DNA of 64,000 nt, from assembly GCF_056712565.1 (NCBI RefSeq), contig NZ_CM160072.1; one strand, written 5' to 3'. How positions within the stretch are numbered: position 1 is the stretch's first letter; the number at the start of each line of letters is the position of its first letter. Positions 55,503-57,338 of this stretch are shown one piece after another. The position numbers and the translations under genes are program-made. The notes under the pieces were generated by a model. It worked only from the letters and a program-made list of their open reading frames with translations. It ran no database searches and was not told where the DNA came from.

Positions 55503-57338
55503 TTACCTGCCAAAGCGCGTATAGCCAACATCATGGCTGACATCAAAACCGCTGGATCGCGTTTCCATAACCCGCATACCCGGAGGTGAATTCACAAAAG
55601 AGACCTTGATCTCACCATCAACTTTTGGCGCAGAAGCTTTGTTAATCATGAAGGGATTCGGGCCTGTGGCACCGGAGGCGTTGTTTGACTGAGCCGGATC
55701 CACCGCCTGATAAGGTGTGTATCCCCGTGCCGGTATTCCCGTCCCATAAGCATCATAAGCACCCGCGCCCCACTGCGCAGAGTTAATGGCATCGACCGTG
55801 TCACCGGAACTGTCGGTAAACCACTCAATAATTGGCTTCAGCTTGTCCCACATATCCTGAAACCACTTAACAACCGGTCCCCAGTTATTGATTACCATCC
55901 CCAGCGGCGACCAGGCAAAAACCTTCTTCAGAAGTTCCCGGCCAGCCTCAAAATAAGGACCAATGGTTTCCCAGAGCTTCTTGAAATAAGGTCCGACAAC
56001 ATCCCAGTTAGTGATAATTAATCCCGCAGCCAGGGCTATCGCCGTCGCAATCATGCCAATCGGCGTCATCGACATGATCCTGCTGACAATACTGATGGCA
56101 CCGCCAACGCCCATCAATCCCAGTTTCAGAATCGCAAGACCGGCAGCAAGCCCGACGACGCCGCGAATAACCCGGGGATTTTCATCCGCAAACTTCGTGA
56201 ATTTCTCCCCCAACTCCCCCAGCCATTGCGTGATATTTTTAGCGTCACCAGAAAATGCGCCGCCAATAGCCGCAAGGCCGTTAGTTGCGGTCCCTGTCAT
56301 TGCCTCCCACAGGTTGGACAGCGTACCAAGCTGTGCCTGAACACGTTTATTCAGACTGGCCTGTTTATTCATCTTCTGCTGGATCTGGTCGTAGCCATCC
56401 TTTCCTTTATCGATTAGTGCATTGACCACCTGAAGGGTTTCGGCATCATCACCAAATATTGCCTTAAGTACACCAGTTCGCTTAACGTCGGTCAGTTTTC
56501 GCAGCTTTGCCAGTTGCCTGAACATGTTATCAAGACCGCCAAAACTCCCTTTGCCGTCAGTAAAATCGAGCTGTACCCCGAGTTTCTGGCGGGCCATGAC
56601 TTTATTGACGTCCCTGATTTTCTTAACGCTTAATCCGGACTGGATAACTTTTCGCAGGGCGTTACCTGCCGACTCCCCGTTCATCCCCATCTGATCCATC
56701 ATGACGCTGATGGGGGCAAGGCTCTGTGCAGCCTGAAGACCGTCCTTGTTCACCATCTTCAGAACAGAGCTGGTTTTAGTGAAGAAGGACAACATGTTGG
56801 TATCGTCAACGCCCAGATAAAACGCCTTCTGGATAGTGTCGAACAGCCCCATCATGTCTTCTGACGCCGTTCCGGTAGCATCCTGCATCTTTGCGGCAAA
56901 CTCGGCAGCCGCTTCCGGTGTTTTTTTCAGTTGTACCGCAAGATAAGCTGTCGCTTTACCCACACCGCCAAGAATGTTTTCTGCCGGGATCCCCTGACGC
57001 ACCAGCATCTACATCATGTTCTGGAAATCAGCCGTTGTACCGGGTAGCTGGTTACCCAGACCAATAGCCAGTTTATTGATGTCCTGAAAGCGCTTTCCGA
57101 CCTCACCGTTCGCATCCATCATGGCAACTTTCAGCCCGGTGGCGGCGTTTTCCTGATCGGCATAAGATTTCAGGGAAAGCGTCAGACCCGCAGCCAGTCC
57201 GCCACCAAGCGCCAGCCCACCCTGTGACGCTTCTTCCGCCTGGCGTTTAAATCCCCGGATTTTCTTTTGCATTTTCGACAGCGCGGGAGAAAGCCTGTCG
57301 ACACCGGTGATCAACGCCTTAAGCTCAAATTCAGCCAT
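55503..57338 (-). CDS. tail tape measure protein interrupted by a single in-frame TAG (57009-57011)
   Basis: 109-aa N-terminal ORF and 501-aa ORF in same frame separated only by TAG (..FQNMM * MLVRQGIP..); Gly/Ala-rich hydrophobic segment. Confidence 0.65.

Follow-up and report, generated by a model that had tools for sequence, protein, structure and literature searches.

An amber codon in the tape measure gene of an SfV-like Escherichia coli prophage, probably a second hit in an already broken tail module

The window (the whole stretch of DNA analyzed here, 64,000 nucleotides) contains an SfV-like prophage whose tape measure gene is interrupted by one in-frame amber codon, TAG, at a position where every other copy examined has a sense codon. 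In our reading, to which we give a probability of roughly 70%, a private C-to-T transition truncates the tape measure protein and represents the second hit in the ordinary decay of a prophage whose tail module was already broken by an older frameshift in the baseplate J/gp47 gene.

The interrupted gene lies on the minus strand at 55503..57338 and comprises 611 codons plus the terminal stop, with the interruption at codon 110. Translation of 57338..55503 in a single frame yields 109 amino acids, a stop, 501 amino acids, and the terminal stop; a single stop codon thus breaks an otherwise open gene of 611 codons. The list of open reading frames contains the same two pieces on the minus strand, at 57009..57338 (109 amino acids) and 55503..57008 (501 amino acids). 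The amber codon occupies 57009..57011 (minus strand; orthologous codon CAG, Gln-110), and the minus-strand letters around it read ...TTC CAG AAC ATG ATG TAG ATG CTG GTG CGT.... The N-terminal fragment of 109 codons (57012..57338, minus strand) starts at the ATG at 57338, which has an AGGAG ribosome-binding site on its 5′ side, and ends just past an invariant LPGTTADF motif. The C-terminal open reading frame of 501 codons (55503..57008, minus strand) begins directly 3′ of the TAG with an ATG that is the native Met-111 codon found in all relatives. No Shine–Dalgarno-like sequence precedes this ATG (upstream context GCTGATTTCCAGAACATGATGTAG). The coordinates, frame, and codon counts (109 + TAG + 501) given in the earlier note on this DNA are correct by all three routes, the minus-strand reading, the list of open reading frames, and the translation.

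Several lines of evidence identify the gene. When Gln-110 is restored, the 611-amino acid product matches PF10145 (PhageMin_Tail) over residues 88–296 (i-E 5e-27), as well as several PHROG families described as “tail length tape measure protein,” among them phrog_28 (E 2e-119) and phrog_17727 (E 4e-169). Across its 1836 nucleotides, the gene shows 98.0% nucleotide identity to orf14 of SfV, and both the gene order in the 7.8-kb tail loci and the gene coordinates are the same as in SfV. This order, found also in SfI, SfII, vB_EcoM-689R6, SKA5, and E. coli UTI89, runs from the tail terminator through DUF2635, sheath, tube, tail assembly chaperone, tape measure, Mu-N-like, and Mu-P-like to Mu gp45-like.

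The order is fixed by the tail assembly chaperone gene on one side of the tape measure gene (89 amino acids, PF10109; 57749..57480 on the minus strand, with a −1 frame extension spanning 57331..57749). A T-TTT-TTC slippery heptamer is found at 57498..57492, four codons ahead of the chaperone stop, and the conserved −1 frame extension (phrog_32181) reaches 57331, where it overlaps the tape measure start. We assign this arrangement to the usual G/GT-type programmed frameshift, with a predicted fusion protein of 139 amino acids. The next gene on the downstream side is a Mu-N-like “DNA circulation”/baseplate hub gene (54114..55484, minus strand), which directly follows the tape measure gene and was recognized by phrog_184 and by the annotation of relatives. 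The interrupted gene therefore combines the profile match of the tape measure family with its position between a chaperone pair with −1 frameshift and the baseplate hub genes. Judged by its sequence, it is the tape measure gene of a prophage of the SfV type, in which an HK97-type head is combined with a contractile tail of the Mu type. The identification as a tape measure gene, originally made from the letters alone, is thus borne out by PF10145, the PHROG families, the identity to SfV orf14, and the neighboring genes.

The SfV-like prophage is located downstream of ssrA (tmRNA, 40562–40924) in an ST95-like E. coli and was rightly called the second prophage. The first, a prophage of the P2 type, spans 1–∼29100, adjoins rplS/yfiB, possesses an intact tape measure gene of its own (24716–27160, 814 amino acids), and holds non-P2 cargo including a HIT-family gene. 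Only four complete genomes, those of APEC E18055, SF-468, MS15052, and 10035004-3, have this P2-like prophage at ∼100% identity along the entire 24.9-kb query. Apart from the TAG base, the only small differences from SF-468 in the 64-kb window lie in the P2-like prophage at 14573, 18027, and 18810 (two substitutions and a 1-bp intergenic indel).

Between ssrA and the tail-fiber genes of the SfV-like prophage we observed a DinI-like pseudogene at ∼45442–45659 (with a frameshift and an internal stop according to the annotation of relatives), a DUF262-domain gene at 45985–47934 that is possibly defense-type cargo, and a LEM-3-like GIY-YIG gene. At ∼440 bp from ssrA, on its downstream side, a copy of IS2 (1331 bp, 41362–42692) is flanked by a 5-bp target duplication, ACAAC. 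None of the 5426 complete E. coli genomes searched has this IS2 junction; three of them have an IS2 end ∼100 bp away at the same locus.

The tail-fiber region includes an invertible segment at 48220–50158 that carries the fiber C terminus and an assembly chaperone in the style of the Mu G segment, bounded by inverted repeats at 48220–48239 and 50139–50158. Its orientation is that of IHE3034 and opposite to that of the otherwise near-identical SF-468 and APEC E18055. The invertase gene beside the segment is a remnant of ∼42 codons (∼48036–48158). The inversion was either catalyzed in trans by another invertase or is older than the truncation of the invertase gene.

When compared with UTI89, the 1836-nucleotide tape measure gene differs only at nucleotide 328, where C is replaced by T and CAG (Gln-110) becomes TAG. 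The changed base is position 57011 of the window, which is A on the plus strand and G in relatives. The TAG base is also the sole substitution in the tape measure gene with respect to IHE3034, SF-468, and APEC E18055. The same picture emerges over longer distances. In a comparison with IHE3034 over 21.3 kb of prophage, only the TAG base and a 1-bp deletion at ∼51269 differ, and between the window and SF-468, no substitution other than the TAG base occurs in ∼36 kb. The tape measure genes of SfV and 689R6 likewise have CAG at codon 110.

The distribution of the two alleles was examined with a 63-mer centered on the codon, which found matches in 907 E. coli records (974 copies in 901 of the 5426 complete E. 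coli genomes). The TAG version has an exact match in none of the 907 records, whereas the CAG version matches exactly in 836 of them. In environmental and viral collections, a 34-mer with TAG gave no exact match in either IMG/VR or the JGI metagenome contigs; the 34-mer with CAG is present in at least 120 IMG/VR contigs. Phage records did not contain the TAG allele either. When the 501- and 109-amino acid products were looked up as exact proteins in a large assembly collection, every gene returned was cut short by the end of its contig and had no internal stop. In those contigs that run beyond ATGATG, C or CA comes next, as in CAG. We regard these products as a selection effect of exact-length matching and not as a sign of TAG polymorphism.

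More distant homologues give the same answer. In an alignment that included Edwardsiella EPP-1, Pantoea AH07, Burkholderia KS14, two Klebsiella P2-like phages, and Pseudomonas Bise, the column of codon 110, which lies five residues past the invariant LPGTTADF motif, is occupied by Q, T, or R even in homologues of only 35% identity, and none of seven phage homologues has a stop there. The comparison with intact homologues proposed in the earlier note accordingly turned out in its favor; every other copy examined has a sense codon, which in the E. coli and SfV-type copies is CAG. The comparison with SfV gives 32 codons with synonymous and 3 with non-synonymous differences, a pattern by which the tape measure family is under clear purifying selection. 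The stop is absent from the orthologues, and their codon is one mutational step away from it, as in nonsense pseudogenes. Because no TAG occurs in the other sequences searched and homologues encode Q, T, or R, the codon is best described, at the sequence level, as a private nonsense change and not as programmed readthrough.

The tape measure gene is not the only damaged tail gene of this prophage. The baseplate J/gp47 gene (51021..52078, minus strand) has lost 1 bp (GGG to GG) near 51269, and the resulting frameshift divides it into the open reading frames 52078..51239 and 51260..51021. The NCBI PGAP annotation labels the baseplate J gene “frameshifted” in SF-468 and APEC E18055. The deletion allele is common to 11 complete E. 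coli genomes from different laboratories (SF-468, ZJ3920, MS15052, and APEC E16002, E18006, and E18055 among them), and ∼770 other records are intact. Since the deletion occurs in 11 independently sequenced genomes, the frameshift is real and inherited, and the tail module was broken before the TAG arose.

This order of events suggests how the amber codon came to be tolerated. The earlier frameshift in baseplate J would have released the tail genes from selection, and the TAG would have followed as a second hit; in tail genes that are already without selection, a further disabling hit is to be expected. The proposed event is a C-to-T transition (G-to-A on the plus strand, at 57011) that would have turned codon 110 from CAG into TAG.

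Release factor 1 terminates translation at UAG. Termination at codon 110 would leave a fragment of 109 residues that ends within the conserved PhageMin_Tail domain, and the other 82% of the protein, with its hydrophobic segments and C-terminal end, would not be made in useful amounts. Long tails require the tape measure protein, which nucleates polymerization of the tube and sets its length; without it, no tails would form. In phage TP901-1, which has a tape measure protein of a related family, infectivity depends on the N-terminal 154 residues of this protein, and a hydrophobic segment and the C-terminal 60 residues are needed as well (PMC5099701). By these requirements, neither the 109-amino acid fragment nor a 501-amino acid fragment started at Met-111 is expected to work. 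By analogy with the family (PMC5099701), the length of the tape measure protein would also set the tail length in the SfV-like prophage, and the protein would be needed for tail assembly.

The prophage is thus very probably defective, as had been claimed, with a disabling TAG in place of the CAG found in every other copy examined. The earlier note had, however, made an exception for a host that suppresses amber codons. This exception does not hold, because suppression alone would be insufficient for rescue; it leaves the baseplate J gene unrepaired, and the frameshift would remain. A literature search on this prophage in UTI89 and ST95 yielded nothing specific on its induction or on the formation of particles.

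The unique TAG could also be explained by an error in base calling or assembly, with CAG as the true codon and a tape measure gene as intact as in all relatives. Such an error would be in line with the absence of the allele from at least 974 E. coli copies and from the IMG/VR and JGI metagenomes, as well as with its being the sole substitution with respect to SF-468 in 36 kb. The overall agreement with independent assemblies argues against it. Over ∼63 kb, the window and SF-468 are distinguished by only 3 substitutions, 1 indel, 1 IS2 insertion, and 1 segment inversion; BLAST scores suggest that at least two of the small differences at 14573, 18027, and 18810 are private to SF-468, and over the P2-like region APEC E18055 is closer still. 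Such a near-perfect match speaks for a good assembly, where few substitution errors would be expected. Real private changes are found elsewhere in the strain, for example the IS2 copy with its clean 5-bp target duplication. Moreover, of the single-base substitutions that are possible in the tape measure gene, ∼3.2% would produce a stop codon, which makes a real nonsense hit unsurprising in a prophage that was probably already under relaxed selection. Overall, we regard an error as unlikely and the TAG as a likely real mutation.

If the mutation is real, the gene might still be expressed conditionally or at a low level, through a supE-type suppressor, readthrough by near-cognate tRNA-Gln, or re-initiation at ATG-111. 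UAG is naturally read through at a low level by tRNA-Gln, and an A after UAG, as present here, has been reported as a context favorable for suppression. Because the TAG is derived from CAG, insertion of glutamine would give the exact wild-type protein, and an ATG directly 3′ of a stop is an arrangement seen in translational coupling. However, suppressor alleles are unusual in natural isolates, and ARAGORN detected only ssrA and no tRNA gene within the 64-kb window. The lack of a Shine–Dalgarno sequence upstream of ATG-111 makes efficient re-initiation unlikely, and a fragment that starts at residue 111 would be without the N-terminal region and half of the conserved motif block. The frameshift in baseplate J would block tail assembly regardless, and the arrangement is kept in no other genome searched. 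Expression of this kind is therefore very unlikely overall. A leaky TAG that leaves the gene partly functional, with little full-length protein from tRNA-Gln readthrough or a two-piece protein from re-initiation at ATG-111, is less probable still; if true, it would be a natural “split” or down-tuned tape measure. A functional split gene that depends on re-initiation at ATG-111 was likewise judged unlikely, with no ribosome-binding site in front of this ATG and with N-terminal deletions that abolish infectivity in TP901-1 (PMC5099701). Finally, the in-frame stop within an otherwise intact long open reading frame might be taken as a designed feature, that is, as programmed stop codon readthrough or recoding of the genetic code. 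This arrangement is the sole point in its favor. A stop at codon 110 occurs in no orthologue or more distant homologue, the functional relatives SfV, SfI, SfII, SKA5, and 689R6 encode Gln there, and elsewhere in this prophage TAG acts as a regular stop codon, at the end of tfaE (48679–49281). The sequence downstream of the TAG is the same as in the relatives with CAG. We rejected programmed readthrough or recoding on these grounds, and consider it to have next to no probability.

For annotation, the private truncation in an already compromised prophage means that the tape measure gene is to be labeled a pseudogene with an internal stop, beside the frameshifted baseplate J gene, and that the prophage should be treated as tail-defective. 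Beyond this, the locus offers a small and cleanly dated case of stepwise decay, with an older lesion in a sub-lineage of 11 genomes followed by a private second hit. It reveals nothing new on translation, recoding, or tail assembly.

The tape measure genes of SfV (orf14, NP_599046), SfI, SfII, vB_EcoM-689R6, and SKA5 resemble the interrupted gene in their 611 codons, with 97.5–98% nucleotide identity to it, and have the same neighbors (sheath, tube, chaperone, tape measure, Mu-N-like, and Mu-P-like). In this group the gene is uninterrupted with CAG (Gln) at codon 110, whereas the window has TAG. The ST95-type prophage of UTI89, IHE3034, APEC O1, SF-468, and APEC E18055 is closer still; it occupies the same site downstream of ssrA, and its tape measure gene is alike but for one base. 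The window differs from these relatives by the TAG and the IS2 copy, and from SF-468 and E18055 also by the opposite orientation of the tail-fiber segment.

Tail genes of phages, for example lambda H, T4 gene 29, and the Mu tape measure gene, have yielded classical conditional-lethal amber mutants. Like these, the gene described here is an essential tail gene in which CAG has become TAG, a change that a glutamine-inserting suppressor could in principle suppress, with the wild-type protein restored. In contrast to them, it belongs to a resident prophage in a natural-type isolate, where baseplate J carries a second lesion that is not an amber codon. The gene also resembles the pseudogenes of decaying (cryptic) E. 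coli prophages, with which it shares a private disabling point mutation, further lesions (here the baseplate J frameshift, the DinI-like pseudogene, and the truncated invertase), and a nearby insertion sequence. We find no substantive difference to these. The interrupted tape measure gene is a standard nonsense pseudogene of an already known kind, in a prophage that represents an early stage of decay with most of its genes still intact.
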